Origin: Candidatus Polarisedimenticolia bacterium
GTDB lineage: Bacteria; Acidobacteriota; Polarisedimenticolia; Gp22-AA2; AA152
Assembly (NCBI GenBank): GCA_035764505.1
Contig: DASTZC010000226.1
Coordinates: 1 to 60,887, forward strand
DNA length: 60,887 nucleotides
Direction of reading: 5' to 3'
Shown: in pieces, positions 20,774 through 57,781 of the stretch
How positions within the stretch are numbered: position 1 is the stretch's first letter
Layout: every line of letters begins with the position of its first letter
Position numbers and translations under genes: made by a program
Notes under the pieces: generated by a model
Databases searched by the model: none
The model's input: the letters and a program-made list of their open reading frames with translations, nothing else
Told to the model about the DNA's origin: nothing

Positions 20774-23088
<2,315 letters not shown>

Positions 23089-23089
<1 letters not shown>

Positions 23090-24045: not shown

Positions 24046-24073
24046 GTTGATCCCTCCTCGGCCTCGCGGCCGC

Positions 24074-29145: not shown

Positions 29146-29374
29146 CGGCATCCCTCCTGTAGACGGCGATGGCCCCCGGCTCGGGGCAGGCATAGAAACA
29201 GTGGCTGTCGGCCAGGCACCCCTCGCCGGCAAACCTGACCGGGTGATATCCCTGGTGATTGAAGCCCGCGGAATGCGACAGGCAATTCCCCGGGCAGACG
29301 GAGATGCACAGGCCGCACCCCTTGCATTCCTCGCTGTTGATCACGACCCAACCGTGCGCTCTTGCACCAGGCAT
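29126..29374 (-). CDS. 4Fe-4S ferredoxin-type delta subunit of the oxidoreductase
   Basis: 82 aa counted from [30 protein letters not shown], with a second cluster motif [22 protein letters not shown]. First gene of the operon. Confidence 0.8.
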
Positions 29375-29652
29375 GGCGATCCTCCTCGGCAACAGGCATA
29401 GCAGGGTCCGTGCCTGATTCACGAGGATGGATCGATGAGATCCCGGGGACCTCAGCCTCGCCGTGGAGGCGGGTTTGTGGGCCTTTCAGGCGCGATGAGC
29501 AGGTTCTTTCGCGTCGCGCGGCGCGTCGTGATTCCCGGCGCGCCGAAACTTCTGCGGCGGCGCTCAGTTCTCGCGCATCGTTTGCGGTGGGAGGAAGCGA
29601 GAGACTTGGTGGGATTTCGCATCCCGGGCGGACACCCGGCGGGACGGTTCCC

Positions 29653-30792: not shown

Positions 30793-31324
30793 GGCGACCG
30801 CTCCTTCGACGCCCGCGTGCCACGCCTCGAGGCGGGAAACGGGGACAGCCTTCGCAGGAGGTACAGCAACGACTGTGCCACGCTCATTCCCCCTGCGCTC
30901 GGCGCGGTGCCCCGGCGACCCCGGCTCACGGGCCTTCAGGCGACCCGGTTGCCTCTAAAAATTTCGCAGAGCCTCTCGATTCCCCGCAAATCTTTCGCTC
31001 GCCTCGAGCCCGGTTCCTCGCTCTTGCCCGCGCGCAAACCGGTTTTTGCAGCGTTTCCATGGGGAAGCAGAGATTTCGTTCCTGTGTTTTCGCCGTGCAC
31101 GCTTCTTGCAGTTCTGCTGCGGCGGGCAGGGGCAGGCAACGGCAAAGGGTTGCAGCCGTTCTCTCTCCCGGCGCCCTGGATCCAAGCAAAAACCGCGAAC
31201 GTCTCGCGGGCGACTCCCCCCCAGCAGGGAGGTGATGAAAGGCCGGGGAGCAGAGTGAATGCGGGATTCACCGTGGGATGAACGGACCAACTCCTTCCCT
31301 CAAGGGGAAGCACACGAGGCGCAC

Positions 31325-32617
31325 ATGAGAACGCTAACCAAGATCGTCGCGGTGACGGCCTCCGTGGCGGCGCTCTTCCTGTGGGGGACGCCGGTATGGG
31401 CGTTCCACGACGGTGGCGTCGCCTATTGCACGGGCTGCCATAGCATGCACAGCTCCCCCAGCTCGAGCCACCTGCTGATGAAGAGCGACGCCGGTTCCAC
31501 CTGCCTGCGCTGTCATGAAAGAACCGGCGACGCCGGGCCGAGCAGCTATCACATCAGCACTCCGGCGAGCGAGTTGCTGAATGCGACCGACATTCCCAAG
31601 CAGCGCACACCCGGTGGTGATTTCGGCTGGCTGCGGCAGAACCTCACGGCCCTCTCCACCTTCGGCAGCCCCGTCAACAACCAGGGATTCACTCGCGGTC
31701 ACAACATCATCGCGATGGACAACAGCTACACCTTCGTCGACGGTCCCACCGCTCCGGGCGGGACGATGCCGGCGTCGGAGCTGACCTGCATCAGCTGCCA
31801 TGATCCGCACAGCCGCGCCCGCCGTCTCGACGACGGCAGCGTCGTCTATCCCACCAGCGTCGGCGTCTCCGCGCCGATCGAGGAGTCGGGCTCCTACGGC
31901 TTCGTCCCCGGCCCGGGGATGGCGGCGGGGGTCTACCGCCTGCTCGGCGGATCGGCCTACCAGGCCTTCGACAGCGGCCCGAGCTTCCCCGGAGTGCCGG
32001 CGGCCGTGGTTCCAAACACCTACAATCGGACGGAAGCCGCGACCCAGACCCGGGTGGCGTACGGGCACGGCACCACGAGCGGCTACGTCTCCTGGGGCAA
32101 GTGGTGCTCCACCTGCCACACCGGCATGCACTCCGACACGGCCTCGAACCTCGTCCACGTCGTCGACGCTCAGCTCAACGCGAACGCCGACATCTACAAC
32201 TCCTACATCAAGACCGGCGATCTCACCGGGAGCTCGGCGAACTCTTACACGTCGCTCGTCCCCTTCGCCAAGAACACCAATGACGTGGCGACCCTCGCCC
32301 TCCAGGCCCTCAACGACGATTCCGATCTGACCGGCCCGGCCGGGACGGATCGAATCGGATGCCTCTCCTGCCACCGCGCGCACGCCAGCGGCTGGAGATT
32401 TGGGATGCGCTGGAACAGCGAGTCGGAGTTCCTGACGCTGGCCGACGGAACCGGCGCCCCGGTCTACCCGGGTGTCGATGCCGGCATGGGCAACCAGGGC
32501 CAGTACAACCGCGGCTACACGGTGAACCAGATGAAGGCGGCGTACTACGATCGTCCGCCGACGGTCTTCGCCGCGGCTCAGAGGCAGTACTGCAACAAGT
32601 GCCACGCGAAGGATTGA
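31325..32617 (+). CDS. omcS: hexahaem c-type cytochrome, OmcS-like (cytochrome-filament family)
   Basis: 430 aa with signal peptide ...GTPVWA|FHDGGVAYCTGCHSMH. There are six CxxCH motifs (CTGCH, CLRCH, CISCH, CSTCH, CLSCH, CNKCH). From memory of G. sulfurreducens OmcS, colinear motifs are FHSGGV..C.GCH.MH, GPSSYHIS, TPGGDFGW, YNRTEA.TQTRVAYG, YNSY.K.GDLTG, CLSCHRAHASG and C-terminal CNKCHAKD. Confidence 0.85.
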   Translation: MRTLTKIVAVTASVAALFLWGTPVWAFHDGGVAYCTGCHSMHSSPSSSHLLMKSDAGSTCLRCHERTGDAGPSSYHISTPASELLNATDIPKQRTPGGDFGWLRQNLTALSTFGSPVNNQGFTRGHNIIAMDNSYTFVDGPTAPGGTMPASELTCISCHDPHSRARRLDDGSVVYPTSVGVSAPIEESGSYGFVPGPGMAAGVYRLLGGSAYQAFDSGPSFPGVPAAVVPNTYNRTEAATQTRVAYGHGTTSGYVSWGKWCSTCHTGMHSDTASNLVHVVDAQLNANADIYNSYIKTGDLTGSSANSYTSLVPFAKNTNDVATLALQALNDDSDLTGPAGTDRIGCLSCHRAHASGWRFGMRWNSESEFLTLADGTGAPVYPGVDAGMGNQGQYNRGYTVNQMKAAYYDRPPTVFAAAQRQYCNKCHAKD

Positions 32618-32657
32618 CCGGACGATCCGGGCTCCCGCCCGGATCCCGGAAAGACTC

Positions 32658-32683
32658 AGGGGCCGGCCGCTTGGCCGGCCCCT
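32658..32683 (+). terminator. GC-rich stem-loop (attenuator/terminator-like) after the OmcS-like gene
   Basis: AGGGGCCGGCC-GCTT-GGCCGGCCCCT, a perfect 11-bp stem 40 nt after the stop, followed by TGTCGTGTT (a weak U-tract). Confidence 0.5.
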
Positions 32684-32707
32684 TGTCGTGTTAGGCTGAG
32701 GCCCGAA

Positions 32708-34138
32708 TTGGGCCGATGGCCCGTCCTTCCCGGGGACGATTTGAGAGCGCTGGCAGGAGCTTTGCTCGTTCTCTTCGCAGCGGCCGGTTGTGCCGCTTCG
32801 AGGCTCGTCGACAAGTCGCCGCTTCCGAGGGACGAGGCCCGCATTCATCTCTACCTCCTCCCGCTTCCCCCGGACGCTGCCCGCCTCGAGGTTCTCCTGG
32901 AGGGAGCCTCCGCCGTGCGGGAAGATGGATCGCTGATTCCGCTGCAGCTCGCATTCAATCGCCTCCGAGCGGGAGATCCCGATCGCGAGCGGCGGCTCGC
33001 CTCGGGGCCGGCCCCCCCCGGCCGCTACGCCGGATTGGAGCTGCGGATCGGCTCCGCCGCCCTGACGGGCGAAGGGGGCGGCGCCCTCGGCACCGACGCC
33101 GCCGTCACGGTTCCTTTTCTTTTCACGGTGCAGGAAAAGCAGCCCGTGGTGATTTCGCTGCGTCTCGATCATGCCGGCTCGATGACCGAGGGGATGCGCT
33201 TCCAGCCGTCCTTCGTGGCCGAGGCGCCGCCCCGGCCGCCGTCCGGCCTGATTGCCCTGGCCAGCGCGCGCGGCTCGGACGAGCTGGCGATCTTCGACAA
33301 GGTGTCCGGCCGGATTGCCGGAATCGTCCCGACCGGACGCCGTCCGGGGGGGCTGGCGCTGGATTCCGCCCGGCGGCGCGCCTACGTTGCCGTCACCGGG
33401 GAGGATCGGATTGAAGCGATCGGGCTCCTCGAGCAGGCGGTGCTCGCCCGGCTGAACCTGCGGGTCGGGGACGAGCCGGTGGAGGTCGCGCTGACCCCCG
33501 ACGGCCAGACGCTGGTCACCGCGAATGCCGGGTCCAGCAGCGCCAGCATCGTGGACGCATTGGCGCTCGTGGAGCGCGCGCGCGTTTCGGTCGGCAACGA
33601 GCCGGGATCGGTTCTCCTGGATCGGGCCGGACGGCGCGCCTACCTGTTCAACACCGGCTCGAGCAGCATCACCGTCATCGACGTGGCGGCGCGTGCGGTG
33701 GTGGCCACCCTGGGGACGGAGGCGGGGCCGCTGCGCGGACAGCTCGACCGGGACGGCAGGCGCCTGTACGTCATTCATCGCGCCTCCCCTTACCTGACGA
33801 TTTTCGACACGAACACGCTCGCGGCAGTCGCCCGCACCTACGTCGGTCCCGGGGCGACCGCGCTGAAGGTCGATCCGAAGACCGACCGGATCTACCTGGC
33901 TCGCCGAAAAACGGGGATCCTCGAGATCTTCGATCCTGCCTCCCTCCTGCCCACCGACTCCATCCCGGTGGACGGCGAGATCTCCTTCGTCACCATCGAC
34001 GACGAGGGAAACGCCCTGGTGCTCACCTTGCCGGGGTCCGGGGAGGCGCGCCGGATCGGAATCGCCGGGAAGACGGCCGCCGCGCGCACCGACGTCGGGG
34101 CCGATCCCCGTTACGCGGCCCTGGTCGGAGAAAGGTGA
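32708..34138 (+). CDS. YVTN-type beta-propeller lipoprotein with N-terminal DUF4382-like domain
   Basis: 476-aa track ORF with a TTG start. An alternative TTG at 32741 gives an ideal lipoprotein signal (M)RALAGALLVLFAAAG|C. The propeller blades repeat the patterns P.G.A.D...R.YV.......I.VID. Confidence 0.75.
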   Translation: MGRWPVLPGDDLRALAGALLVLFAAAGCAASRLVDKSPLPRDEARIHLYLLPLPPDAARLEVLLEGASAVREDGSLIPLQLAFNRLRAGDPDRERRLASGPAPPGRYAGLELRIGSAALTGEGGGALGTDAAVTVPFLFTVQEKQPVVISLRLDHAGSMTEGMRFQPSFVAEAPPRPPSGLIALASARGSDELAIFDKVSGRIAGIVPTGRRPGGLALDSARRRAYVAVTGEDRIEAIGLLEQAVLARLNLRVGDEPVEVALTPDGQTLVTANAGSSSASIVDALALVERARVSVGNEPGSVLLDRAGRRAYLFNTGSSSITVIDVAARAVVATLGTEAGPLRGQLDRDGRRLYVIHRASPYLTIFDTNTLAAVARTYVGPGATALKVDPKTDRIYLARRKTGILEIFDPASLLPTDSIPVDGEISFVTIDDEGNALVLTLPGSGEARRIGIAGKTAAARTDVGADPRYAALVGER

Positions 34139-34176
34139 CGGGTGGTGTGGATCGCGGACGCGCGCGCGCGCCGGGA

Positions 34177-36348
34177 ATGCAGCCAAGGCGATTTCCGGCA
34201 TCGTGGCTCGCCGTCCTGGTGGCCGGCTTGCTCATCCCCACCTCCGGGGCGCGCGCCCAGGACGTCTCGGGATACGCGGAGCTGGCGGCCTCGCGGGACC
34301 GCACTCACCTGGTGGATGGAGGGGTCACGGACGTGCTGAGCGACTCGTTCCTGCAGCGCTACAGCGTCGACTTCCTGTGGCGGCTGTATCCGAATCTCCA
34401 GGTAATGGCCGGAGGTCTGTACGAGCGCGACTTCACCGAGGCCTCCCTGAACGACGTCGATCTCGAGACGCTGCAGCGCAAGGTCCGGCCCTACGTCACG
34501 GCCACGCTGCGCACGCCGATCCAGTCGGCCTCGGTGGGCTGGTATCGTAACGAAGACACCTTTCGTTCGGACGGGTCCTCCCTCGGAGCCGTGCAGGAGA
34601 TCGTGAACGCCACCCTGGGATGGAGGCCGGAGCGCTTTCCGCAAACCACCCTGCGGTTCCTGCGCACCCACGACTACGATCCTGACCGCGTGATCCAGGA
34701 CACCAACACCGACCTGCTCGACCTGGTCCTGGAGGACGAGGTGAAGGACTCGGTGCACATCTACTACCGAGGGGCCCTCGAGGAGATTGACGATCGGATC
34801 AACGACTTCCAGCTGAACCGCATCTCCCATTCGGGACGGGTCGACTATGGCGACTCCTGGTGGGACCAGCGCCTCCAGGTGGGCGGGGAATACGACATCC
34901 ACAAGACGTCGGAGGAGGTGACGAGCAGCGGCGGCGGCGAGGTGCTCACGCCGCTGTTTCCCATCGGCGGTCTGTCGGGCCTCGACGATACCCCGGCCGA
35001 CGGCTTCCTGGCGGCCACCCCCGCGCTGATCGACGAGGATCGGATCGCCGGCGTCGGGCTCGACCTCGGGCTGCCGCCGATCGGCGGGGACGTCCGTCCG
35101 CGCAATCTCGGGCTCGACTTCGGGGCGACGACCCGCGTGAACACTCTCTTCGTCTGGGTGGACCGCGACCTCCCGGCCGCGGTCTCCGGCTCGTTCTCCT
35201 GGGAGCTGTACACCAGCGCCGACAACGTGACCTGGCAGCTCGAGCAGACCATCTTTCCGGCGCTGTTCGGGCCGTTCGTGACCCGCTTCGAGATTCGCTT
35301 CACCGCCGTGGACGCCCGCTACGTCAAGCTCGCGGTGCGTCCTCTTGCCGCCAGCGTTCCGAACGCGACCCAGTTTCCCAATATCTTCATCACCGAGCTG
35401 CAGGCCGCCGTCCGGACCGCGGCGGCGGATGCGACCGGCCGGAACGAGCTGACCACACAGCTCCTGACCACGAGCCTGAGGCTCCGGCTGACCGATCGTC
35501 CCGCCGTGACCTACGAGTTCTCCGCCTTCGGTCGGAAGATCGAGGACTTTCCGGTCTACGGCACGATCTCCAACGGATTCTCGCTGCACCACGTCTTCAA
35601 TCCGGTCTACTCGACGATGGCCCGCGTGGCCCGCGAGGACAGCCACGAGTCGGATGGCGACCGCACCACCTACCTCTATACGGCGTCGCTCCGGGCGGTT
35701 CCGCTGTCGACCCTGGAAAGCACGCTGGTGTTCAGCGGCCGATCCTCGGAGCACGAGGGACTGCCAAGCGATTCGGCCGGGGTGCGCTGGACGACGCAGG
35801 CCGAGCTCTACCGGGGAATCAGCGCGCGGCTGGGTCTCGGGCGCTCGGCCGTGCTGACCGAGGACGGAGAGCGCACGGAGATGCGGGAGGTCGACGTCCT
35901 GACGACCCTCGACCCGCACCCGGCGGTGACCCTGAGCCTGCTTGTTCAGGACGACTCGGGGAACCGCCAGGGCGGGCACCTGGTGGAGGAGGTGCCGGTG
36001 GAGCGGCAGGCCGAGGAGGCGGGAGTGACGTTCCGGCCCTTCGCCACCCTCTATATGTTCTTCTCCTACCGGCGGGACCGCGAGAATTCCCTGCCGGTCC
36101 GCTTCACGCGCAGCTCGTCGGCGAGCTGGGCCCCTTTCCCCGACGGGCGGCTCCAGATTCTGTTCCGTTTCGACGACTCGTACCGCTCGGATTTGGAGGC
36201 GGAGAGCCGGATCTTCTCTCCACGTGTGCGCTGGAACGTCACCGACCGCTGGTATCTCGAGGCCGCCTACGAGAGCGCCGAGTTCAATTCCGCCCTGGAC
36301 GATCGCTCGTCCGACATCGTAACGTTCAGCACGCGGATATGGTTCTGA
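34177..36348 (+). CDS. large outer-membrane beta-barrel protein with internal discoidin (F5/8 type C)-like segment
   Basis: 723 aa counted from MQPRRFPASWLAVLVAGLLIPTSGARA|QD. Amphipathic strands run throughout. The central NTLFVWVDRDL...WELYTSADNVTWQLEQ...FTAVDARYVKLAV is discoidin-like. The C-terminal beta-signal ...VTFSTRIWF ends in Phe. Confidence 0.7.
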   Translation: MQPRRFPASWLAVLVAGLLIPTSGARAQDVSGYAELAASRDRTHLVDGGVTDVLSDSFLQRYSVDFLWRLYPNLQVMAGGLYERDFTEASLNDVDLETLQRKVRPYVTATLRTPIQSASVGWYRNEDTFRSDGSSLGAVQEIVNATLGWRPERFPQTTLRFLRTHDYDPDRVIQDTNTDLLDLVLEDEVKDSVHIYYRGALEEIDDRINDFQLNRISHSGRVDYGDSWWDQRLQVGGEYDIHKTSEEVTSSGGGEVLTPLFPIGGLSGLDDTPADGFLAATPALIDEDRIAGVGLDLGLPPIGGDVRPRNLGLDFGATTRVNTLFVWVDRDLPAAVSGSFSWELYTSADNVTWQLEQTIFPALFGPFVTRFEIRFTAVDARYVKLAVRPLAASVPNATQFPNIFITELQAAVRTAAADATGRNELTTQLLTTSLRLRLTDRPAVTYEFSAFGRKIEDFPVYGTISNGFSLHHVFNPVYSTMARVAREDSHESDGDRTTYLYTASLRAVPLSTLESTLVFSGRSSEHEGLPSDSAGVRWTTQAELYRGISARLGLGRSAVLTEDGERTEMREVDVLTTLDPHPAVTLSLLVQDDSGNRQGGHLVEEVPVERQAEEAGVTFRPFATLYMFFSYRRDRENSLPVRFTRSSSASWAPFPDGRLQILFRFDDSYRSDLEAESRIFSPRVRWNVTDRWYLEAAYESAEFNSALDDRSSDIVTFSTRIWF

Positions 36349-36938
36349 GGAGGACCCGCCCCTTGAAGCGCATCTGGATGATGTCCCTGGCCGGCATGCT
36401 GGCGCTGCTTTCGGCGTGCGCCACCTCGCAGGGGGAACGCACGACGTTCCACGACCCGAATATGGACTTCAGCACCCTCCACAAGGTGGCGGTGCTTCCC
36501 TTCGCGAACCTGACGACGAGCGCCAAGGCGGAGGAGCGGGTGCGCGACGTCTTCATGACGATGCTGCAGGCGACCGGCGCGTTCTACGTCCTTCCTCCCG
36601 GCGAGGTGGCCCGGGCCGTCTCCCGGACCGGTCTTGCCAATCCGTCGGCGCCGACCGCCGAGGAGGCGGTGAAGCTCGCGAAGAACCTCGAGGCCGACGC
36701 GATCCTGACCGGCAGCCTGCTGGAATACGGCGAGGTGCGCTCCGCCTCGGCGAGCGCCAACGTGATCTCGGTGAACGTCGCGATGATGGAATCCACCACC
36801 GGCAAGGTCGTCTGGAGCGCTTCCGCCACCGAAGGGGGGATCGGCGCCGGCAAGCGCCTCTTCGGAGGAGGCGGGGAGCCGATGAACGTGGTCACGGCCA
36901 AAGCGGTGGAAGACTTGATCCACGAGCTTTTCAAGTAG
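36339..36938 (+). CDS. TolB-N/LpoB/DUF799-like lipoprotein
   Basis: It sits inside the tail of track ORF 34860..36938. MVLRRTRPLKRIWMMSLAGMLALLSA|C is a lipobox. The core reads VAVLPFANLTTS...ADAILTGSLLEYG...GKVVWSASA. Its start overlaps the barrel gene's stop. Confidence 0.7.
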   Translation: MVLRRTRPLKRIWMMSLAGMLALLSACATSQGERTTFHDPNMDFSTLHKVAVLPFANLTTSAKAEERVRDVFMTMLQATGAFYVLPPGEVARAVSRTGLANPSAPTAEEAVKLAKNLEADAILTGSLLEYGEVRSASASANVISVNVAMMESTTGKVVWSASATEGGIGAGKRLFGGGGEPMNVVTAKAVEDLIHELFK

Positions 36939-36939
36939 A

Positions 36940-38094
36940 ATGACGCCCCCTAGGGAACCTCGCATGATGCTCATCCGCCGGCGGCTCGCGGCCGCCCTGA
37001 TGGCCGTTGCGGCCGCGGTCGGCTCTCGCGGCCGGCTCTGCGCGGAGGACCTGCGGGTCCCCGCCCCCGCGGAGGAGATCGCCGTCTTCCCGTTCGAGGA
37101 CCTTTCGGCCGCGGCGGCGCCGGCGGAGGAGATCGGGGAGCGCTTCCGCGAGGCCCTGGAGGCCCGCGGACTGCGGGTCCTCCGGCCGGACGCGACGGAA
37201 GCGTTTCTGCGCCGGCACAGGGTGCGCTGGGTCGGCGGGATCTCCCGAGAGGTGGGAAAGTCGCTGCGCGAGGAGACCGGGGCCGGCGCCGTGCTGGTCG
37301 CCTCGGTCGATCTCTTCGACGCAGGCTCCGTCCCACGCTTCGCGCTCACCGCGCGCCTCGTGTCGGCCGGGCCGGAGCCGCGCATCCTCTGGATGGATGC
37401 CGCCTCGGGCGCCGGCGACGAGAAGCCCGGGGTGCTCGACCTCGGCCTGGTCTACGACGTCGCGCTCCTGGAGGAGCGGGCCATCGACCGTCTGGCCGGC
37501 TCGCTCGATCCCGTCTGGAGGCTGGGCCACGTCAAGCGTCCCGGGCCGGAGAAGGCGGCGAGAAGCCGCCGGCCGCGCAGTTTCTTCCGGTCTCCGGAAG
37601 GGGCGGGCGCCTGGAAGGCGGCCGCGAAGACCGCCGTGCTTCCCTTCGCCAACGGGACGACGGCGCCGGATGCCGGCCAGATTGTCACCCTGCAGATCGT
37701 TCGCGCCCTGGTGAACGGGAGCAATCTGGAGGTGCTCGAGCCCGGAGTCGTCCGCGAGACGCTCCTCCAGTCGCGGCTGATCCAGGAGGAAGGGCTTTCG
37801 GTCCCGCAAGCCGACCTGCTGCGCGCGGTCCTGGGTGTGGACCTGGCGCTGTTCGGAGAAGTCACGGAATATGTCGAAGGAGGTCCCGCAGGGTTCGAGC
37901 CGGCAGTCGATTTTTCGGTGCGCGCGATCGACACGCAGCGCGGGCAGGTCATCTGGTCCTCGATCAGCCAGGAGCGCGGCTTCGAGGGAGCCGTCTTTTT
38001 CGGCCTCGGCCGGATCCCGACCGCCCACCTCCTGACCTCAGAAATGTCCCGGTCCCTCGTGGCGACTCTCGAGGGTCCCAAAGGAGCACGATGA
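36940..38094 (+). CDS. secreted protein with two tandem TolB-N/LpoB-like modules
   Basis: 384 aa. Module 1 is IAVFPFEDLS...VLVASVDLF. Module 2 is TAVLPFANGTT...DLALFGEVTEYV...GQVIWSSIS. Both resemble the preceding lipoprotein. Confidence 0.65.
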   Translation: MTPPREPRMMLIRRRLAAALMAVAAAVGSRGRLCAEDLRVPAPAEEIAVFPFEDLSAAAAPAEEIGERFREALEARGLRVLRPDATEAFLRRHRVRWVGGISREVGKSLREETGAGAVLVASVDLFDAGSVPRFALTARLVSAGPEPRILWMDAASGAGDEKPGVLDLGLVYDVALLEERAIDRLAGSLDPVWRLGHVKRPGPEKAARSRRPRSFFRSPEGAGAWKAAAKTAVLPFANGTTAPDAGQIVTLQIVRALVNGSNLEVLEPGVVRETLLQSRLIQEEGLSVPQADLLRAVLGVDLALFGEVTEYVEGGPAGFEPAVDFSVRAIDTQRGQVIWSSISQERGFEGAVFFGLGRIPTAHLLTSEMSRSLVATLEGPKGAR

Positions 38095-39794
38095 GCACGC
38101 CAAAGGTCCCGTCGAGAATCCTGCTGTGCGGCCTCGCGGCCTTGATCGGCGCCGCAGCGTCTCCCGCGCGGCTGCCGGTATTCGCCGGCAAGGAGGCGGT
38201 GGCCACCGTGAACGGCGAGCCGGTCACGCTGGAAGATCTGGCTCGCCACGTGGGCAGCCTGCATGAAGGGATCGCCGAGCCGGCGGCCCCGGTGAAGAAG
38301 GCGGATCCCTCCCGGATCCTGCAGCGGATGATCGATGCGCGGCTGGTGGCGCAGGAAGCCAGGAGGATCGGCCTCGATCAGCTCCCCGACATCAAGAAGC
38401 GCCTCGATGACGACCGCCTCGATCTGGTGAAGAGCCTCGTGGTGCGCGACGCGGTGAAGGATGTCCCGCCCCCCTCCCCCGCCGAGATCGACCAGCGCGC
38501 CCGCGAGTCGGTCCGCGATCTGCGGGTCGAGTCGGTGCTCTTCACGCGCGAGGAGGACGCCCGCGCCTTCGTCGCCGCGGTACGCGGCGGAGGCGACTTC
38601 GGCGCCCTGGCGCGCGCCGCCTTCTCCGCCGGCAAGGCCCGGGAGCCGGGGCCCGCGGCCTCCATGAAGCCCGATGCCTTGCGCCCCGAGGTGGCCGATC
38701 CGATCCTGGCGCTGAAGCCCGGCGGCGTGACCGAGCCGCTCCGCATCACGGAGGGGTTCACCGTCGCGCACCTCCTCGAGATCCGGTATCCCGTGGAGGC
38801 CGCGGACCGCGCCGCCGCCGAGCGCGACCTCCTGGAGCCGCGGCGCCAGGCGCGCCTCGAGCAGGCGAAGGTTCGGATGCGCCGCGATTATTTCCAGGTC
38901 GACCAGGGCCTGCTCGCAAAACTGGATTATGAGGCCGCCTCACCCGGCCTCGCTGCCCTGCGCAAAGACACCCGGGTGCTGGCGCGCGTCAAGGGAGATC
39001 CGCCGGTCCTGGTGAAGGACCTCACGGCGGAAGTGGAGAAGAACTTCTACCATGGCGTGCAGGAGGCCATCGAGCGCAAGCGGGTCAACGAGAGTCTTCC
39101 CCGGCTGCTGGATCGGGTCCTGATGGAGCGCGCCACGCTGCTGGAGGCGAAGCGGCTCAAGATCGAGAGCACCGCCGAGTTTCGCGACACGCTGCGCGAG
39201 CGCGAGGACGAGCGCCTGTTCGAGGCCTTCCTGCAGAAGGTGGTTCATCCGGACATCCATCTTACCGACGACGAGCTGCAGCGCTACTATGCCGCCCATG
39301 CGAAGGACTATGCATCGCCCGAGATGATGCGCCTGGAGGGGATCGCTTTCGGCCGGCGGGAAGATGCGCAGTCGGCCTTCCAGAAGCTCCAGAAGGGGGC
39401 CGATATGAAGTGGATGCAGGCGAACGCGCCGGGCAGGGCGGATCGGGAGCATTTTCCCGAGATGGCCGATCTGGGGAACGGCCTCGTGGTCACCAGCACC
39501 TTTCCCGAGCCCATCCGCAACGCGGTCGCCGGCGCCACGGGCGGCGACCTGCGGCTGGCCTCCTCCCCGGCCGGGCCGCACTACGTCCTCGCCATCCGCC
39601 AGGTGGTTCCGGCCTCGCCGCGCCCCTTCGACAGTGTGCGCAGCGACATCGCCTCGCTTCTTTACAGGCAGAAACGGCAGGCGGCGCTCGACGAATGGAC
39701 CGCGAAGCTGCGGGCCGCCTCCGTGGTGAAGACCTTCGCCGACGGCAAGACGCTCGCCTCGCTTCTGCAGGAAGCTTCGGGGAAGCGCAGGTGA
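38091..39794 (+). CDS. SurA-like peptidyl-prolyl cis-trans isomerase (parvulin/PpiC-type), periplasmic
   Basis: 567 aa with a signal peptide. The SurA-N-like start is VATVNGEPVTLEDL. The parvulin-like segments end in GGVTEPLRITEGFTVAHLLEIR and SSPAGPHYVLAIRQV. It has an ATGA overlap upstream and a GTGA overlap downstream. Confidence 0.8.
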   Translation: MSTPKVPSRILLCGLAALIGAAASPARLPVFAGKEAVATVNGEPVTLEDLARHVGSLHEGIAEPAAPVKKADPSRILQRMIDARLVAQEARRIGLDQLPDIKKRLDDDRLDLVKSLVVRDAVKDVPPPSPAEIDQRARESVRDLRVESVLFTREEDARAFVAAVRGGGDFGALARAAFSAGKAREPGPAASMKPDALRPEVADPILALKPGGVTEPLRITEGFTVAHLLEIRYPVEAADRAAAERDLLEPRRQARLEQAKVRMRRDYFQVDQGLLAKLDYEAASPGLAALRKDTRVLARVKGDPPVLVKDLTAEVEKNFYHGVQEAIERKRVNESLPRLLDRVLMERATLLEAKRLKIESTAEFRDTLREREDERLFEAFLQKVVHPDIHLTDDELQRYYAAHAKDYASPEMMRLEGIAFGRREDAQSAFQKLQKGADMKWMQANAPGRADREHFPEMADLGNGLVVTSTFPEPIRNAVAGATGGDLRLASSPAGPHYVLAIRQVVPASPRPFDSVRSDIASLLYRQKRQAALDEWTAKLRAASVVKTFADGKTLASLLQEASGKRR

Positions 39795-41788
39795 AAGGGG
39801 CTTTCCCGGACAGGCGCCGGGCGGTGCGCCGCGCCCGACTCGGGTGGCTGCCGCTTTTCCTCCTGGCGGCTTGCATCTCCTCCGCCGCCGCCGAGCCGCG
39901 CGGCGGCCCCACCCGGCAGTTCCAGAAAAAAGGGTGTCTCGACTGCCACAAGCAGTTCGCCGATCGCATCCGCTCCCTGCCGGACCTCCATCCCGGCGTC
40001 AAGAACGGAGACTGCGAGCAGTGCCACCTGCGGCACGGGATCGTGCCGAAGCTTCTTCTGAAGAAGGAGCAGGGTCAGCTCTGTCTCGAGTGCCACAACC
40101 GCGACAAGATCGGCCTGGACGCCGCCCACGTCCACGCGCCGGTGAAGTCGGGCCAGTGCACCGGCTGCCACGATCCGCACGGATCGGCCGCGCCGCGGCT
40201 GCTGAAGGCCGAAGGTCCGCAGGCCTGCTTCTCCTGCCACGACCGCAAGCCGTTCGAGCGGCGCTTCGTGCACGAGGTCCTGCAAAAGCAGGGGTGCGTC
40301 GCCTGCCACCAGGCGCACGGCTCGGCCCAGCCGGCGCTTCTGGTGAAGGGCGAGGCGCCCCTCTGCCTCTCATGCCACGACGCCACGCGCGACAGCTTCC
40401 GCAAGGCGCACGGCGGCTACCCGGTGGAAAAGGCGCGCTGTGCATCCTGCCACGACCCTCATTCTTCCGCGGAGAAGGGGCTGATGAAGCCGAACGTGCA
40501 TGCCCCGGCCGCGGCGGCGGACTGCGGCTCCTGCCACGCCAAGCCCGGATCGGAGAAGCCCTTCGCGCTCCTCGACGAGGCGGGGAAATTGTGCCGCACC
40601 TGCCACGATGACGAGTCCCTCAAGCAGGGGGGCAAGGACGAGCATGCTCCCTTCGCCACCGGCGACTGCCTGACCTGCCACGACCCGCACGCCTCGCAGC
40701 AGGCGTCCCTGCTGATCGAGCCTCCCAAATCGCTGTGCGTGGAGTGCCACTCCGAGAAGGGGCGCGCTCCCGCCCATCCGCACGCGGCGATGAGCGCGGA
40801 GAAGGCATGCCTCTCCTGCCACCGGCCGCATGCCGGCACGGGGAAGGCGCTGCTCGCCTCCCCGGTGCCGGGGCTGTGTGAAGGCTGTCACGCCGGGGTG
40901 AAGAAGGAGAAGGAGGCGAAGGTGCTCCACGCCCCCTTCGACTCGGGCGACTGCGTGGCGTGCCACGATCCGCACGGTTCCGATGTCCCCGCCATCCTGC
41001 GCGAGCGGGCCGACGCGGTCTGCTTCAGCTGCCACACCGACGCCCGCGCCGATTTCCAGAAGGCGGAAGTGCATCGTCCCGTCCTGACCGGCCAGTGCGT
41101 CGCCTGCCACTTCCCCCACGGCTCGGCGCAGAAGGCGCTGCTGCGCGCCCCGGCGGAGACGCTGTGCGCGCAATGCCATTCCGAGCTGACGCAGCAGGAT
41201 GCCAAGGGGACGGCCCACGCGCCCGTGGCGGCCGGCGACTGCCTCACCTGCCACGATCCACACGCTTCGGACACCCCCGGCATGCTGGCGAAGAGCCAGG
41301 TGTCGTTGTGCGCCGACTGCCACGGCGACATCACCGAGACCAAGGAAAAGACCGTCAGCCGCCATGCTCCGGCGCAGTCGGGAACGTGCACCGCCTGCCA
41401 CAACCCGCACCGCTCCTCCCTGTCGGCGCTCCTGAAGGTCCAGAGCCCCGATCTCTGCCTCTCGTGCCACCAGAATCTGAAGGAGGCGCTGGCGAAGCAG
41501 CATGCGCACCCGCCCGCGGCGCGCGACTGCCTGCGCTGCCACGTTCCTCACGCCTCGCCGCAAAAAGCCCTTCTGTCGCGGCCCACCGCGCAGCTCTGCT
41601 CCGAATGCCACGCCACCGGAGAGGAGGGCTTCCGCAAGGCGCATCTCGGGATCGATCCCGGCGTGATGAATTGCGTGAGTTGCCACACTCCCCACGCGTC
41701 GGAGGACCCGAAGCTGTTCAAGGAGCAGACGCATGCTCCATTCGCCGGACATTCGTGCGAGGAATGCCATGTGGTCCCCGCCCACTGA
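39791..41788 (+). CDS. multihaem c-type cytochrome with 26 CxxCH motifs (possible lipoprotein)
   Basis: 665 aa from a GTG start that overlaps the PPIase stop. The signal has LFLLAA|C. I counted 26 CxxCH motifs in the track translation, alternating H.P....C..CH.PH and LC..CH contexts. Confidence 0.9.
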   Translation: MKGAFPDRRRAVRRARLGWLPLFLLAACISSAAAEPRGGPTRQFQKKGCLDCHKQFADRIRSLPDLHPGVKNGDCEQCHLRHGIVPKLLLKKEQGQLCLECHNRDKIGLDAAHVHAPVKSGQCTGCHDPHGSAAPRLLKAEGPQACFSCHDRKPFERRFVHEVLQKQGCVACHQAHGSAQPALLVKGEAPLCLSCHDATRDSFRKAHGGYPVEKARCASCHDPHSSAEKGLMKPNVHAPAAAADCGSCHAKPGSEKPFALLDEAGKLCRTCHDDESLKQGGKDEHAPFATGDCLTCHDPHASQQASLLIEPPKSLCVECHSEKGRAPAHPHAAMSAEKACLSCHRPHAGTGKALLASPVPGLCEGCHAGVKKEKEAKVLHAPFDSGDCVACHDPHGSDVPAILRERADAVCFSCHTDARADFQKAEVHRPVLTGQCVACHFPHGSAQKALLRAPAETLCAQCHSELTQQDAKGTAHAPVAAGDCLTCHDPHASDTPGMLAKSQVSLCADCHGDITETKEKTVSRHAPAQSGTCTACHNPHRSSLSALLKVQSPDLCLSCHQNLKEALAKQHAHPPAARDCLRCHVPHASPQKALLSRPTAQLCSECHATGEEGFRKAHLGIDPGVMNCVSCHTPHASEDPKLFKEQTHAPFAGHSCEECHVVPAH

Positions 41789-43076
41789 CCGGGTCGCGCC
41801 CCGGGCGCTGCTCGGGCTGCTCGCCGCGCTGGCGCTCGCCGCCACGCCGGCGCACTCCGCCACGCCGGCGGCTTCCTCGGCCGACAAGTTTCATCTCAAG
41901 CCCGGGGCGACCGGGAAAGTCTGCCTCGGGTGCCACGCGGATCTGGCGGAAGCCGCGGCCCTCCCGGTCGTGCACGCGCCGGTGAAGGCGGGAGACTGCA
42001 TCGCCTGCCACAATCCGCATGCCTCGTCGCACGGCAAGCTGCTGGAGGCGAGCGGCGCGGCGCTGTGCGCGCGCTGCCATCCGACGATCGCGCCTCCCGG
42101 CGCCGCGCATCTGCACGCGCCGGTCGCGGCCGGCGAATGCGCCCGCTGCCACGATCCCCACGGCAGCCGGAATGCGAGTCTGCTGCGGGCGGTGGGCAAC
42201 GAGACCTGCGCCAGCTGTCATGCCGCGCTCGTCGGCCATGTGACCCACGCGAAGTTCGCGCACCCTCCCGCGGCGAAGAACTGCCTCGTCTGCCACGATC
42301 CGCACGGCGGACGGTCGGGAGAGTTCCTCCTGAAGAAAGACGTCCCCGAGCTGTGCACCGGCTGCCACACCGCCAGCGCGCCGGAGTTCGTCAAGCGCCA
42401 CGTCGGCTACCCGGTGGCCAAGGCGCGCTGCACCTCCTGCCATGATCCGCACGGCTCCGACCAGGCGGGGGGGCTCTGGGCGAAGGTCCATCCTCCGGCC
42501 GCCAACCGGATGTGCGCCCAGTGCCATCTCGACGCGACCGGCCCCAATCCCACCGGCCTGCGAAAAACCGGCTCCGAGCTGTGCCGCTCCTGCCATGGCG
42601 AGGTGCTCCGGCAGATCAGCACGCGCAGCCATGTGCACCTGCCGGTCGCCGACCGGGTCGCCTGCCTGAACTGCCACTCGCCGCACGCCTCCGCGCAGGA
42701 CGCGCTGCTGCGACAGCCGGCGAAGCAGCTGTGCGGCCGCTGTCACGCAGCCACCATCGCCCGGCAGGAGACGTCCAAGACGAAACATCCTCCGGTCGAA
42801 GAGGGGATGTGCGGGAGCTGTCACGAGGTGCACGCTTCCGATCACCGCTTCCTGCTGAACGACGCGAACGTGATGGAGGTGTGCGGCGCCTGCCACGAGT
42901 GGAAGAACCATTCGACCCATCCGATCGGCGAGAAGGCGGTCGACCCTCGCAACCCGAACCTGACCGTCGATTGCCTGAGCTGCCATCGAACCCACGGCGC
43001 CGCCCATCAGGGCCTCGCCCACTTCGATCGGGATTCCGAGCTGTGCGTCCAATGCCATCAGGGGGTGCGTCGATGA
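41769..43076 (+). CDS. multihaem c-type cytochrome with 16 CxxCH motifs
   Basis: 435 aa counted from MWSPPTDRVAPRALLGLLAALALAATPAHS|A. It has 16 CxxCH motifs with the same alternating module as the 26-haem protein. Its start overlaps the previous gene's 3' end by 20 nt. Confidence 0.88.
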   Translation: MWSPPTDRVAPRALLGLLAALALAATPAHSATPAASSADKFHLKPGATGKVCLGCHADLAEAAALPVVHAPVKAGDCIACHNPHASSHGKLLEASGAALCARCHPTIAPPGAAHLHAPVAAGECARCHDPHGSRNASLLRAVGNETCASCHAALVGHVTHAKFAHPPAAKNCLVCHDPHGGRSGEFLLKKDVPELCTGCHTASAPEFVKRHVGYPVAKARCTSCHDPHGSDQAGGLWAKVHPPAANRMCAQCHLDATGPNPTGLRKTGSELCRSCHGEVLRQISTRSHVHLPVADRVACLNCHSPHASAQDALLRQPAKQLCGRCHAATIARQETSKTKHPPVEEGMCGSCHEVHASDHRFLLNDANVMEVCGACHEWKNHSTHPIGEKAVDPRNPNLTVDCLSCHRTHGAAHQGLAHFDRDSELCVQCHQGVRR

Positions 43077-43981
43077 GACGCAGAAACGCCACCGCCCGGC
43101 TCCTGCGCGCCGTCTTGTGCCTGGGACTCGCAGGCGGATTGGCCCTGGCCGCTTCCGGGGTGCGGCTCAGGCCGCTGCCGCCGATCTACGTCGATGCCGC
43201 GGGAGCCCCGCTCCGCCAGCCGCAGGGAGTCGGCTGCGGAGCATCGACCCTGGTGGTGGCCGACACCGGCAACAGCCGCCTCGTCCCCTACTCGATCGCC
43301 GGCGAGCAGATCACGGCCGGCAAGGAGATCCGCATCCCGGAGCTCGTTTCGCCGTCGCGGGTCCAGGTGGCGGAAGACGGAACCCTCTTCGCTCTCGACG
43401 GCAAGAGCCACAAGATCTTCCGGCTGTCGACGGCCGGGGCCTTGCAGGGCACGGTCCCGGTCCCGGCTGAACCGGCGGCCGGCGCTCCCTTCGTTCAGAG
43501 CTTCCGGCGCGCTGCTTCGGGGGACCTTTATCTTCTCGACGTGGGAACGGGCCGTGTCGTGGTGCTCGCCCCCGACGGCGCGCTCCGCCGGACGATTCCG
43601 CTGCCCGCGCGCGGCGGCTCCTTCACGGATCTTGCAGTCGATTCGGCCGGGACGGTTTTCGTCCTCGACAGCGCGGCACGCCGGCTGCTGGCAGCCCGCG
43701 CCACGGACACCGGACTCGCGCCCCTGGCCGACGGCATGAAGGACGAGGTGGAATTTCCCATCGCCCTGGCGGTTCACGACGGCAAGATCTTCGTCGTCGA
43801 TCAGTCAGGAGGCGGAATCGTCATCCTGGGGCCGGACGGCTCGTTCCACGGGCATCAATCGGGCATGGGCTGGAACGTCGGGTCGCTGCGTTACCCGAGC
43901 GATCTCTGCGCCCTCTCCGGCCTTCTCTTCGTGGCCGACCGCGAGAATCAGCGCATTCAGATTTTTTCCCTCGCCGATTGA
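43073..43981 (+). CDS. NHL-repeat beta-propeller protein, secreted
   Basis: 302 aa with an ATGA overlap onto the cytochrome stop and signal peptide MRRRNATARLLRAVLCLGLAGGLALAA. NHL blades are VADTGNSRLVPY, YLLDVGTGRVVVL, FVLDSAARRLL, IFVVDQSGGGIVIL and LFVADRENQRIQIF. Confidence 0.85.
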   Translation: MRRRNATARLLRAVLCLGLAGGLALAASGVRLRPLPPIYVDAAGAPLRQPQGVGCGASTLVVADTGNSRLVPYSIAGEQITAGKEIRIPELVSPSRVQVAEDGTLFALDGKSHKIFRLSTAGALQGTVPVPAEPAAGAPFVQSFRRAASGDLYLLDVGTGRVVVLAPDGALRRTIPLPARGGSFTDLAVDSAGTVFVLDSAARRLLAARATDTGLAPLADGMKDEVEFPIALAVHDGKIFVVDQSGGGIVILGPDGSFHGHQSGMGWNVGSLRYPSDLCALSGLLFVADRENQRIQIFSLAD

Positions 43982-44062
43982 GACTTCCTCGAGGGATTTT
44001 GCGCCTTCGTGCCATTCTCAATCTGGCACATCGCTTGCTCGAGTAGTACCAAGAGGCTCGAA

Positions 44063-45040
44063 ATGCGAAAAAACTTCCTCGTCTCGACCACCGTCCTGAT
44101 CGTCACCGGCATTTTTTGCGCCATGTCTCAGGCAGCCTCGCCGACCTCATTTATGTATCTCCTTTCCGACTTCACCGGAGTGATTCCTTACAGCGACGTG
44201 AAGCTCCACGCCGACAGGGCTCATGACGAGATCTATGCGATCCTCGGGAACACCATTCGGACCTTCAACGCCGCCGGGATGGAGATTTACAGCTTCACGA
44301 TCGACCCTGCGCTGGGCACGGTTTACGACCTGGTGGTCGAGGAAGACGGCGGGCTTCTTCTCCTGGTCCTCGACTTGCAGCCGGGGGAGCCTCTCCGGTG
44401 GTTCATTCTCCGCTGCGATTACCGCGGCCGGCCCCAGGCGGAGCTGCCGCTCACCGGGCTGCCGCCCGAGCTGGTCTCCTTCCGGCCGAATGCCATGTTC
44501 CTGGAGACCGACCGACTGCTTCTCGTCGCCAAGGCCGACCTCGAGGTGGTGTCGTTCGACCGCGGCGGGCGGTTCCGCGAGCGGATCGACCTGGCGGCGC
44601 GCTGCAAGGTCGCGGATTTCCGGCGAGCCGGCCACGAGATCGCGGGGTTCGACGTCGCGGAGAACGGCGATCTCCTGTTCACCGTCCCGACCCTCTTCCG
44701 TGCCTTCGTCGTTCCACGGCAGGGAGAGTTCCGCTCCTTCGGACATCCGGGCTCGACTTCTGGCTCTTTCGGGGTCGTGGACGGAATCGTGGCCGACGAT
44801 CAGGGAGGCGCGCTGGTGGCCGACAAGAATCGCGGCGTGGTGATGCGGTTCGACAGGAATCTGGAGTTCGTCGCGGAATTCGGAGATGCGGGAGAAGGTC
44901 CTGCCTTACTGATCCGTCCCGCCGAGCTCGCCTTCGGAAGTCATTCCACGCTCTACGTCACCCAGGCGCGGGATCGGGGGGTGGCGGTATTCCGCCTCGA
45001 GCCGCCTGCCGAGGCGGGCGGCACCGCAGCCACTCCTTAG
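44063..45040 (+). CDS. NHL-like beta-propeller protein, secreted
   Basis: 325 aa counted from MRKNFLVSTTVLIVTGIFCAMSQA|A. Blades include LVADKNRGVVMRFD and LYVTQARDRGVAVFRL. The leader region is AT-richer. Confidence 0.7.
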   Translation: MRKNFLVSTTVLIVTGIFCAMSQAASPTSFMYLLSDFTGVIPYSDVKLHADRAHDEIYAILGNTIRTFNAAGMEIYSFTIDPALGTVYDLVVEEDGGLLLLVLDLQPGEPLRWFILRCDYRGRPQAELPLTGLPPELVSFRPNAMFLETDRLLLVAKADLEVVSFDRGGRFRERIDLAARCKVADFRRAGHEIAGFDVAENGDLLFTVPTLFRAFVVPRQGEFRSFGHPGSTSGSFGVVDGIVADDQGGALVADKNRGVVMRFDRNLEFVAEFGDAGEGPALLIRPAELAFGSHSTLYVTQARDRGVAVFRLEPPAEAGGTAATP

Positions 45041-45086: not shown

Positions 45087-47492
45087 CTACTCGCACCGCA
45101 GGACCACGATCGGGTCCACCGTGGCGGCGCGACGCGCCGGAAGGTAGCTGGCCGCGAGCGAGACGAGGACCAGCAGCGCCGTCATGACGACGAAGGTCAG
45201 GGGATCGGTCGGCGCCAGGTTGGTTAGAAGGCTCCGCAACAGGCGCGTGAGCCCCCAGGCTCCCCCCAGACCGATGGCGACGCCGAAGGCCGACAGGACG
45301 AGCCCCTTCCCCACCACCAGCCGCATGACCTCCTGGCGGGGTGCTCCCATCGCCAGGCGGATGCCGATCTCCCGCGTGCGCTGCGCGACGGTGAAGGCCA
45401 TCACGCCATAGACGCCGAGCACCGCGGTCGAGAGCGCGATGAACGCGAAGATGGCGATGAGGGTCATGTTGAAGCGCGGATTGACCAGCTGATATCCCAC
45501 CAGCTTCTCCATCGTCATGATGCGGCCGATCTCCATGTCGGGGTCCACTCCGGCGAGACGGGCGCGGATCGCGGCCGTCTGCTGCTCGGGATCGCCGGAG
45601 GTTCGCACGATGAGCTGGACGGCCCAGCGTGGAAGCTGCGCGAAAGGCCAGTAGATCTGGGGTGCGGGGCGCTCGTCGGGATTGAAGGGACGGACGTCGC
45701 CCACCACGCCGACGATTTCGAAGGTCTCCTGATGCAGCAGCATCCGGAGGCGCTGGCCGATGGGGTTTCCATCCGGCCAGAAACGCCGCGCCATGGTCTC
45801 GTTGATAATGGCCACCTTCGGTTTCCCCGCCGCATCCTCGGGCGTGAAGCTCCGGCCGCGCAGGAGCGGGATACCGAGCGTCTTGAAGTAGCCTGGATCG
45901 ACGTCGAACCAGGCGACCGAGGGCCGTTTCCCGGCCGGCGGGACCAGCCGTCCTTCGATCGTGAACTCCTGCTCGCCGTCTCCCCCCGACAGCGGCACGG
46001 CCGAGCCCTCCGCCACCGAGACGACGGACGGCACCGACGCCACCTCTTCCGCGGCGCGCCGGAACAGCTGAGCCACCTGCGAGGCTTCGGGATACTTTCC
46101 GGGAGAGCTGAACAGAGGCACGATGGCGAGGTTCCGGCGATCGAAGCCGGGCTGCCAATCCACCAGGTTCGCGAAGCTACGCATCAGCAATCCGGCGGCG
46201 ATGAGCAGCAGCAGGGACAGGGCGATTTCCCCCACGACCAGACCGTTGCGGATGCGCACGCCGCGCGGCCGCTCGCTCGCCGCCCGCGAGCTCTTCAGGG
46301 CATCCTGGAGGCTCACCGAGCTGCCATGGAGGGCCGGGATCAGCCCGGAGAGCAGACTGACGAGCAGGGAAAGCAGAATCGTGAAGCCAAGCACGGGAAG
46401 GCTCACGTGGACATCCTGAAGGCGCGGGAACCAGTCGGGCGCCAATTTGAGGAAGAAGTCGACGGCCCAGAAAGCCACCAGCGCTCCGACGCAGGCTCCG
46501 GCCGCGGCCAGGAGGAGGCTCTCGCTCAGCATGGTGCGCATCAAGTCGAGGCGATTGGCGCCCAGGGCCAGGCGCACCGCCTGCTCCTTCTCCTGCGCGA
46601 GCGAGCGCGCCAGCATCAGGTTGGCCACGTTGGCGCACGCGATCAGCAGGACCAGCCCGACCGCGCCCAGGAAGATCAGGAGCGCCGGACGCACCGGCCG
46701 GGTGATCCGCTCGCCCAGCGACTGCACCGAGACGCCCCAGCCGGCGTTGGTGTCGGGATGCTCCTTGGCCAGCTGCGCCCGTAGCGTGTCCATCTCGGAT
46801 TGCGCCTGATCCAGGGTGGCGCCGTCCGCGAGGCGCGCGAATGGAATGAACCCCCGCCAGTCGCGCTTGTCCTGGCGCTCCGGCCAAAGCGGAATCCACA
46901 GGTCGATGGACTCGAGGTTCTGCACCTCGAAGCCCGCCGGCAGCACCCCGATCACCTCGTAGGGCTCCGAGTCGATGTCGAGACGGCGGCCCACCGCGGC
47001 TGCCTCTCCCCCGAGGTGCGTCCGCCAGAACGCATGGCTCACGAGCGCGACATGCTGTCGCCCGGGAAGCATGTCCGGCTCCTCGAAGGTCCGGCCGGTT
47101 GCCGGCTTGACCTCGAAGGCCCGGAAGAACCCGGGCGTCGCGATTCCGCCGCGAGTGCCGAGAGTCTTGCCGGCCAGCTTCACGCTGAACGGCCAGCTTC
47201 TCGCCAACCCGATCGCCTGCAGCGTCCGGCTGCGGCGCGCCCAATCCGACGCATTGGCGGGGGAAGCCGCGCACCAGCTCCCCAGCTGCTCGACATTGGT
47301 CTCGCAGACGTAGACCAGGCGATCCGGGCGCGGATAGGGCAGCGGCCGGAGCAGGACCCCATGAACGAAGCTGAAGATGGTGGTGTTGGCGCCCATCCCC
47401 AGCGCGAGCGTCAGGACGACGGCGAGCGAGAATCCGGGAGCGTGGGCGAGTCGGCGGGCGGCCAGGCGCAGATCGCGAAGGAATCCGCTCAC
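45087..47492 (-). CDS. ADOP-family duplicated orphan permease (MacB/FtsX-like, two permease repeats)
   Basis: 801 aa. The N-terminus [54 protein letters not shown] is the hallmark of the acidobacterial duplicated orphan permease family. There is no adjacent ATPase. Confidence 0.9.
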
Positions 47493-57696: not shown

Positions 57697-57745
57697 CGGC
57701 GCCGCCCCTTCTGGGTCCCTGGGAGGGCATATAAGATGACAAATC

Positions 57746-57781
57746 GGAAATAGGATACCTATTTCCTAAATATAAAGTCAA
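57746..57781 (-). promoter_or_regulatory. putative promoter (TTGACT-N18-TATCCT) overlapped by a perfect 21-bp palindrome operator
   Basis: GGAAATAGG-ATA-CCTATTTCC occupies 57746-57766. On the reverse strand TTGACT sits at 57781-57776 and TATCCT at 57757-57752. This is the only AT-rich patch upstream of had, whose ATG is at 57696. Confidence 0.45.

Follow-up and report, generated by a model that had tools for sequence, protein, structure and literature searches.

We analysed a stretch of 60,887 nucleotides (nt) of DNA (contig DASTZC010000226.1, assembly GCA_035764505.1; hereafter the window, meaning the whole stretch) in which two adjacent genes encode multihaem cytochromes with 26 and 16 CxxCH haem-binding motifs. 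On sequence grounds we assign these genes with high confidence as the counterparts of oscI and oscJ in a complete osc (omcS-companion) cluster. It is likely, with a probability that we put at about 0.6, that their products, which resemble MtrA and would be wires of bis-histidine (bis-His) haems, form one 42-haem unit passing electrons to an OmcS-type filament; our confidence in the electron-conduit function of the pair is moderate. The osc cluster and the "doubled CXXCH" module are already known, and the window is a further example of both. In itself it mainly adds an annotation: an uncultured lineage, probably one of the Acidobacteriota, has a complete locus for an OmcS-type nanowire. The added value lies in the comparative result that 26 and 16 haems make 42, in numbers that are invariant and in chains that are sometimes fused, which gives the two cytochromes a testable role.

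Two overlapping cytochrome genes

The first gene (39791-41788, + strand) encodes a product of 665 amino acids (aa) with 26 CxxCH motifs, that is 25.6 residues per haem, and the second (41733-43076, + strand) a 447-aa product with 16 motifs, or 27.9 residues per haem. Both frames are open throughout on re-translation, with 0 internal stops and 0 variant motifs, and the counts given by an initial annotation of this DNA therefore hold. By comparison, the Cys and His content of the 26-haem protein itself (53 C and 57 H in 665 aa) leads to a chance expectation of about 0.36 CxxCH. Among the other open reading frames (ORFs) of at least 80 aa in the window, such motifs occur in an OmcS homologue (6) and, as a single copy, in the ORF at 56626-57765 (- strand).

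The 26-haem gene begins with GTG at 39791, sharing 4 nt (GTGA) with the stop of the preceding peptidyl-prolyl isomerase (PPIase) gene. The 16-haem gene has two possible starts, ATG 41733 with AAGGAG 7 nt upstream, or ATG 41769 with GAGGA upstream. Since both candidates lie inside the 26-haem gene, whose stop occupies 41786-41788, the overlap is real and amounts to 56 or 20 nt. Both overlaps had been described in the initial annotation and are confirmed here. Moreover, a public 9.1-kb contig (Logan SRR25158454) contains the exact 447-aa protein, and a separate gene call on it returned the same genes of 567, 665, 447 and 302 aa with the same 56-nt overlap. We considered whether a frameshift had split a single 42-haem gene and rejected this, because the 16-haem protein bears a separate signal peptide and a conserved head, at least 69 genomes share the split and the sequence of an independent assembly is identical. 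Long antisense ORFs, among them 40370-41887 and 41718-43058 (both - strand; 505 and 446 aa), oppose the cytochrome genes. They were rejected as genes, as all homology is on the plus strand and such frames are a GC-rich artefact typical of coding DNA with 70% GC. A promoter and terminator scan gave nothing that exceeded shuffled sequences.

Counterparts of OscI and OscJ in 80 related loci

The omcS-companion operon of Geobacter sulfurreducens is reportedly the subject of a study by Shen et al. 2025 (Cell Chem Biol 32:239). In its nomenclature, GSU2501 is named oscC, GSU2495 oscI and GSU2494 oscJ (PMC13194489). GSU2495 contains 26 haem motifs (PMC2996986; PMC12977616), and Gbem_1124 also contains 26 (PMC2996986). 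The initial annotation had pointed to a 26-haem protein at the same relative position in the Geobacter omcS region; this parallel is correct, as GSU2495 is OscI, has 26 motifs and stands in the same gene order.

A genome scan with one genome per species and a 7-sequence alignment as query gave 80 loci from at least five phyla. Among them are isolates of Geomonas and Anaeromyxobacter, as well as metagenome-assembled genomes (MAGs) of Geobacter, Desulfuromonas, Desulfobulbaceae, Deferrimicrobium, Myxococcales, Acidobacteriota and Nitrospirota. Wherever the contig was long enough, the gene order was (L)-OmcS-D-E-F-G-H-I-J-K. A haem count of exactly 26 was obtained for I in 76 of the 80 loci, and one of exactly 16 for J in 69; those deviating genes that were inspected are cut at contig ends or broken into adjacent pieces that total 26 or 16. 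The Geomonas and Geobacter loci, which have the same order, show 46-49% (I) and 46-50% (J) identity to the window, and the closest clusters are those of Acidobacteriota and Thermoanaerobaculia MAGs, with 37-61% identity per protein. The "L" gene stands after K in the window, in two loci of Acidobacteriota (L009 and L014) and in two of Anaeromyxobacter type (L051 and L067), and before OmcS in most others.

The company that the two genes keep bears on one alternative explanation. For the OmcS nanowire, OscH has been linked to folding, OscE-G to secretion as a channel and OscD to morphology (PMC13194489), and the eight-gene block GSU2500-GSU2493, which follows an OmcS-like gene in every Geobacter genome having it, has been called "maturation and secretion" (PMC12977616). 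With neighbours tied to the folding, secretion and morphology of the filament, the haem chain might itself be an assembly factor, a template, nucleator or redox chaperone of OmcS polymerisation rather than a steady-state electron path, for example by keeping the subunit haems reduced or by setting the filament registration. We find this improbable. A 42-haem wire would be a costly chaperone, what is conserved is typical of chains for electron transfer, and no resemblance to OmcS is found in the OscI and OscJ sequences, which makes templating unlikely.

Single-chain relatives with 42 haems

Of the 120 database homologues that match the 26-haem protein best, 78 carry exactly 42 haems and 29 exactly 26. 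These 42-haem proteins measure about 1,065 aa, and the few with a named source come from Zixibacteria, Latescibacterota, Gemmatimonadaceae, Krumholzibacteria and the FCB group. Their spacing vector reads as the 26-haem pattern, a junction of 22-28 residues and then the 16-haem pattern. Indeed, an OscI profile maps to haems 1-26, a profile of OscJ orthologues covers haems 27-42 over its full length in 76 of the 78 proteins, and the C-terminal signature of OscJ (HPxG....DPR....C.SCH) is present. In the window, the OscI tail (5 residues past the last motif) and the mature head of OscJ (about 21 residues before the first Cys) together approximate the length of the junction. In an AlphaFold2 model of one 42-haem protein this junction is ordered, with a predicted local distance difference test (pLDDT) score of 74-86, and no linker is seen. 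As single-chain relatives are collinear with the 26 and 16 haems, the logic of fusion proteins ("Rosetta stone") suggests that the two window proteins most probably work as a single unit, end to end.

Five loci with 42-haem genes were inspected (L001, L002 and L083-L085), and OscF/G-like genes are present in four of them. Three of these four also have hexahaem cytochromes with weak similarity to OmcS, and the order PPIase, 42-haem gene, NHL-repeat gene is found in two. A separate observation concerns L083:163-5678, where two very large cytochromes (1,125 and 710 aa) lie upstream of the set of PPIase, 42-haem and NHL genes. They give weak GSu_C4xC__C2xCH matches, and the stop-to-stop ORFs there hold 25 and 16 CxxCH. 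A literature search for 42-haem cytochromes found no relevant mention.

The same comparison is relevant to a storage function. In this explanation the pair would be a periplasmic capacitor, holding 42 electrons to buffer respiration when the acceptor is absent and making no specific contact with the filament, as proposed for proteins of the GSU1996 type. Long periplasmic multihaem chains in Geobacter have been discussed as electron reservoirs (PMC10138318), and chains in which all haems are bis-His (see below) fit storage as well as transfer. However, storage leaves unexplained why the numbers 26 and 16 are invariant across phyla, why the genes have a fixed position in the osc cluster with coupled translation, and why the fusion in other phyla is in register. 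We thus regard a mere capacitor as rather unlikely.

Haem ligation and fold

Two alignments for the 26-haem protein, with 28 and with 76 homologues, show every one of its 26 motifs and exactly 26 further His to be conserved. The 16-haem family shows the same correspondence, with 16 motifs and 16 further His conserved among 69 homologues. No conserved Met and no conserved CxxCK was found in any of these three alignments. Since the number of conserved extra His equals that of the haems, and given this lack of Met and CxxCK, every haem is expected to be bis-His and six-coordinate. Such chemistry is that of electron transfer and not of catalysis, and the proteins would accordingly be wires and not enzymes. 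We dropped the idea that the last residue of the 26-haem protein, a His, serves as ligand to a haem in its neighbour, because this His is not conserved and both proteins have full sets of distal His.

These features leave little room for a soluble terminal reductase that would reduce a soluble substrate (a metal, nitrite or a sulfur species) at a catalytic haem. Weak and partial matches to NrfB, NrfH and HmcA-type models could point in this direction, but they are far under the family cut-offs. In addition, a distal His is conserved at every haem and there is no CxxCK, open coordination site or non-haem domain, so that we consider this function very improbable.

The nearest relative of known structure is MtrA. 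A sequence search against the PDB with the 26-haem protein gave MtrA (6r2q_A) as the sole significant match (E=8e-20), and the 16-haem protein had three matches, of which MtrA was the best (1.6e-14). The AlphaFold2 model of the 26-haem protein (pLDDT 84, pTM 0.63) likewise has MtrA (6r2q_A) as its sole significant PDB neighbour in Foldseek (E=2e-8), with a target-normalised TM score of 0.60 over all 265 residues. Against the DmsE/MtrA family model TIGR03508, whose cut-off is 192.2 bits, the 26-haem protein scores 308.9 bits as four partial stretches and the 16-haem protein 179.1. We observed that the PDB sequence file labels chain A of 6r2q, which is MtrA, as "Cystathionine beta-synthase"; this is a naming error, and the Foldseek label ("Structure of the Mtr complex") is correct.

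With MtrA as the solved relative by both sequence and fold, and with a 26-haem score above the DmsE/MtrA cut-off, a porin-cytochrome conduit has to be weighed, in which part of OscI/OscJ would be threaded through the OscE-like protein of the cluster, as MtrA is in MtrB, and would deliver electrons to OmcS at the surface. The same operon does provide a 737-aa protein that lacks recognised domains and ends in Phe. However, this protein has no detected similarity to MtrB in Pfam, NCBIfam or PDB searches, OscE-G are described as the OmcS secretion channel (PMC13194489), and crossing a membrane needs roughly 10 haems, which is far below 26 or 42. A scan of the window with Pfam, NCBIfam and the CxxCH pattern found no MtrB-like or MtrC-like gene. 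We judge this arrangement unlikely, and the reading of OscI and OscJ as one 42-haem unit that supplies the filament remains preferred.

The di-haem module

Both proteins are built of the same di-haem module. Pfam PF09699 (Paired_CXXCH_1, "doubled CXXCH") finds 13 stretches in the 26-haem and 8 in the 16-haem protein, with 477 and 283 bits against a cut-off of 20.6, and NCBIfam TIGR01905 agrees (454 and 271 bits). We distinguished three haem contexts, namely T1 (H-x-P-x4-5-CxxCH-x-P-H), which gives two extra histidines, T2 (LL...L-CxxCH), which gives none, and T1', in which T1 lacks its final PH. Along the 26-haem protein the contexts run T2 (T1 T2)x3 T1 T1' T2 (T1 T2)x7 T1 T1', and those of the 16-haem protein begin in the same way. 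The initial annotation had proposed a "beads-on-a-string" chain made from one di-haem module, which agrees with the 13 and 8 Pfam stretches and with a T1-T2 module of 38 residues. Its statement that two contexts alternate strictly needs correction: the contexts do alternate, but the 26-haem protein has two phase slips, with a spacing of 28 residues at each.

Mean identity between modules is about 41%, and repeats in the DNA are at most 73% identical, save three pairs of 20-28 nt, a size expected by chance, at 77-80%; the duplications are thus ancient. The longest DNA repeat (116 nt at 71%) joins the slip regions around haem 8 of both genes, and the best BLAST alignment between the two proteins places N-terminus on N-terminus. 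For these two reasons the 16-haem protein seems to be paralogous to the part of the 26-haem protein that holds haems 1-16.

Export signals and lipidation

The N-terminus of the 26-haem protein contains LAAC, which fits the lipobox pattern tested, [LVI][ASTVI][GAS]C at the end of the signal peptide, as the initial annotation had reported. Lipidation is nevertheless doubtful. A signal-peptidase-I site (AAA|E) follows 6 residues beyond, and the closest OscI orthologues (L008, L014 and L026) have ordinary signal peptides without Cys at the lipobox position. Ordinary signal peptides are the rule in most OscI orthologues, and clear lipoboxes occur in some distant homologues with 26 haems. In the 16-haem protein a separate signal peptide precedes the mature head KF.LKPGA.GK.CL.CH. 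OscJ orthologues share this head as KF(K/H)LKPGAxGKxCLxCH, and their starts usually lie at or inside the end of oscI.

Organisation of the cluster and its surroundings

Ten genes in the same orientation occupy 31259-45040 (all + strand), with the cytochrome genes in seventh and eighth place. The first of the ten, at 31259-32617, encodes a hexahaem cytochrome of OmcS type (OmcS/OscC-like; 6 CxxCH) that is the candidate nanowire subunit; in a phmmer comparison with OmcS (PDB 6ef8/6nef) it aligns full-length, covering OmcS residues 1-407 with E=2.1e-92. It keeps the N-terminal FH.GGV..C..CH.MH, including His16, a residue that in OmcS filaments binds a haem of the adjacent subunit. This homologue may well polymerise, as judged from its sequence.

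It is followed by an OscD-like beta-propeller at 32708-34138, recognised by the YNCE-like beta-propeller model of Pfam and the beta-propeller repeat of NCBIfam and matched in position in the 80 loci. The large OscE-like protein (34135-36348; 737 aa; syntenic "E") gave no match in Pfam, NCBIfam or PDB. Its sequence closes with FSTRIWF, and because the C-terminal Phe resembles the signal of outer-membrane barrels, it is probably such a barrel. The small OscF-like lipoprotein at 36378-36938 starts with an N-terminus containing LALLSAC, followed by a weak LpoB-like match, and is the best conserved protein of the cluster, with 50-61% identity to related loci. The OscG-like protein at 36940-38094 (syntenic "G") has a weak match to GNA1162-like lipoproteins. 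In the window and in three of the 42-haem loci (L001, L084 and L085), OscF- and OscG-like proteins give weak matches of the LpoB, CsgG and GNA1162 types. There are hints that OscF and OscG may share an ancestry with curli-like secretion channels.

The OscH-like PPIase of SurA/PpiC type (38091-39794; Pfam Rotamase_2, E=1.4e-22, and SurA_N) directly precedes the 26-haem gene. After the 16-haem gene come an OscK-like NHL-repeat protein (43073-43981; Pfam NHL, E=1.5e-17; syntenic "K"), whose gene overlaps the 16-haem stop by ATGA, and the second propeller-like protein, "L" (44009-45040), the last of the cluster, which gives a weak NHL-type match. The annotated GTG start of "L" is doubtful, and an ATG 18 codons downstream yields a better signal peptide. 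Overlaps of 4 nt are found at D/E, G/H, H/I and J/K, and through them the cluster genes are predicted to be translationally coupled.

The next gene past the cluster is convergent (MacB/FtsX, 45087-47492, - strand), and the flanking genes are unrelated to the cluster. Besides this MacB/FtsX permease, the flanks (20774-30792 and 45087-47492, both - strand) hold genes of central metabolism (a malic enzyme-PTA fusion, a class IV aminotransferase, an acetyl-CoA hydrolase/transferase, alanine dehydrogenase and a 2-oxoacid:ferredoxin oxidoreductase) and a radical SAM gene. Neither an inner-membrane cytochrome gene nor a Ppc-type trihaem gene was found within the window.

Proposed function of the pair

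We propose that OscI and OscJ would both be exported to the periplasm and dock there head to tail, giving a chain of 42 haems with a fixed length. This chain may take electrons from an inner-membrane or periplasmic pool, and they would run along it to the OmcS-type filament as acceptor, for which the OscD-H proteins encoded next to the pair would provide assembly and anchorage. How electrons are supplied to cytochrome nanowires over a periplasm of 30-40 nm is still debated, and the published model relies on the small diffusing cytochromes PpcA-E. If we assume about 0.8-1 nm per haem, as in the structures of MtrA and GSU1996, 42 haems would measure about 34-42 nm as a rough estimate. Periplasm widths are quoted as less than 30 nm in most microbes and more than 40 nm in G. 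sulfurreducens (PMC10954620). This class of proteins is otherwise noted for rapid change (PMC12977616). That length is strictly conserved here speaks for a constraint set by structure or by a ruler function, and against storage as the only role.

A more specific possibility, which we put forward tentatively and hold to be less probable than not, is that OscI and OscJ form a rigid 42-haem cable matched to the periplasm, a molecular ruler that would hard-wire an inner-membrane source to the base of the OmcS-type filament, seated in the channel of OscE-G. In that case, FCB-group phyla would have the same device in fused form, as their single-chain 42-haem proteins. A span across the periplasm, which the initial annotation had suggested together with a supply of electrons to the fibre base, becomes more plausible through the invariant counts of 26 and 16, the collinear 42-haem relatives and the all-bis-His chemistry; with the in-register fusion, these features turn a fixed-length periplasmic cable for the filament into a concrete hypothesis. 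If it were true, nanowires would be charged by a dedicated, built-in cable and not only by diffusing trihaem carriers.

Several points weigh against an electron supply through the pair. PpcA-E reduce OmcS filaments directly in vitro, so that a dedicated cable is not strictly needed (PMC10954620), and OmcS has been reported as dispensable in some conditions (PMC13194489). Where the osc study is summarised in literature that cites it (PMC13194489), roles are given only for OscD, OscE-G and OscH and none for OscI or OscJ. The Zixibacteria locus with a 42-haem gene (L002) stands without osc-like neighbours. Finally, the shape of an extended rod is inferred from the match to MtrA and from the low ratio of residues to haems. 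Among the rival explanations, our confidence decreases from the porin-cytochrome conduit through the capacitor and the assembly factor to the soluble reductase. Nevertheless, we favour the supply of electrons to an OmcS-type filament by OscI and OscJ.

Comparison with known systems

The osc operon of G. sulfurreducens is the closest known system. It shares with the window an OmcS-type hexahaem cytochrome, a propeller, a large protein, two lipoproteins, a PPIase, a 26-haem cytochrome, a next cytochrome and an NHL protein. OscI has 26 motifs in both; GSU2495 was matched by haem count and gene order, and GSU2494 by gene order. The window comes from a different lineage, nearest to Acidobacteriota MAGs at an identity of only about 50%. 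It also differs in having one OmcS-type gene and no OmcT or extra paralogue, and its "L" propeller comes after K rather than before OmcS.

The decahaem family of MtrA and DmsE (PDB 6R2Q chain A; TIGR03508) has the same di-haem block, the same all-bis-His ligation and the same extended wire with a minimum of peptide. It carries 10 haems, in contrast to the 26 and 16 here, and it belongs to a porin-cytochrome operon, whereas the window genes lie in a filament-biogenesis cluster. The dodecahaem c7 polymers of the GSU1996 type, with which the initial annotation had suggested a comparison, are also periplasmic and carry many haems on a thin polypeptide in a linear array. They are built of trihaem c7 domains with one His-Met haem in each (PMC10138318). 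The comparison fails on this point, as the window proteins have a two-haem period, all haems predicted as bis-His and no conserved Met; Cytochrome_C7 stretches in Pfam are partial only (3 in the 26-haem and 2 in the 16-haem protein).

The single-chain 42-haem proteins are alike in being collinear with the 26 and 16 haems and in sharing both the spacing vector and the C-terminal signature. They differ in consisting of one polypeptide with one signal peptide and in a junction that lacks the KF.LKPGA head of OscJ.

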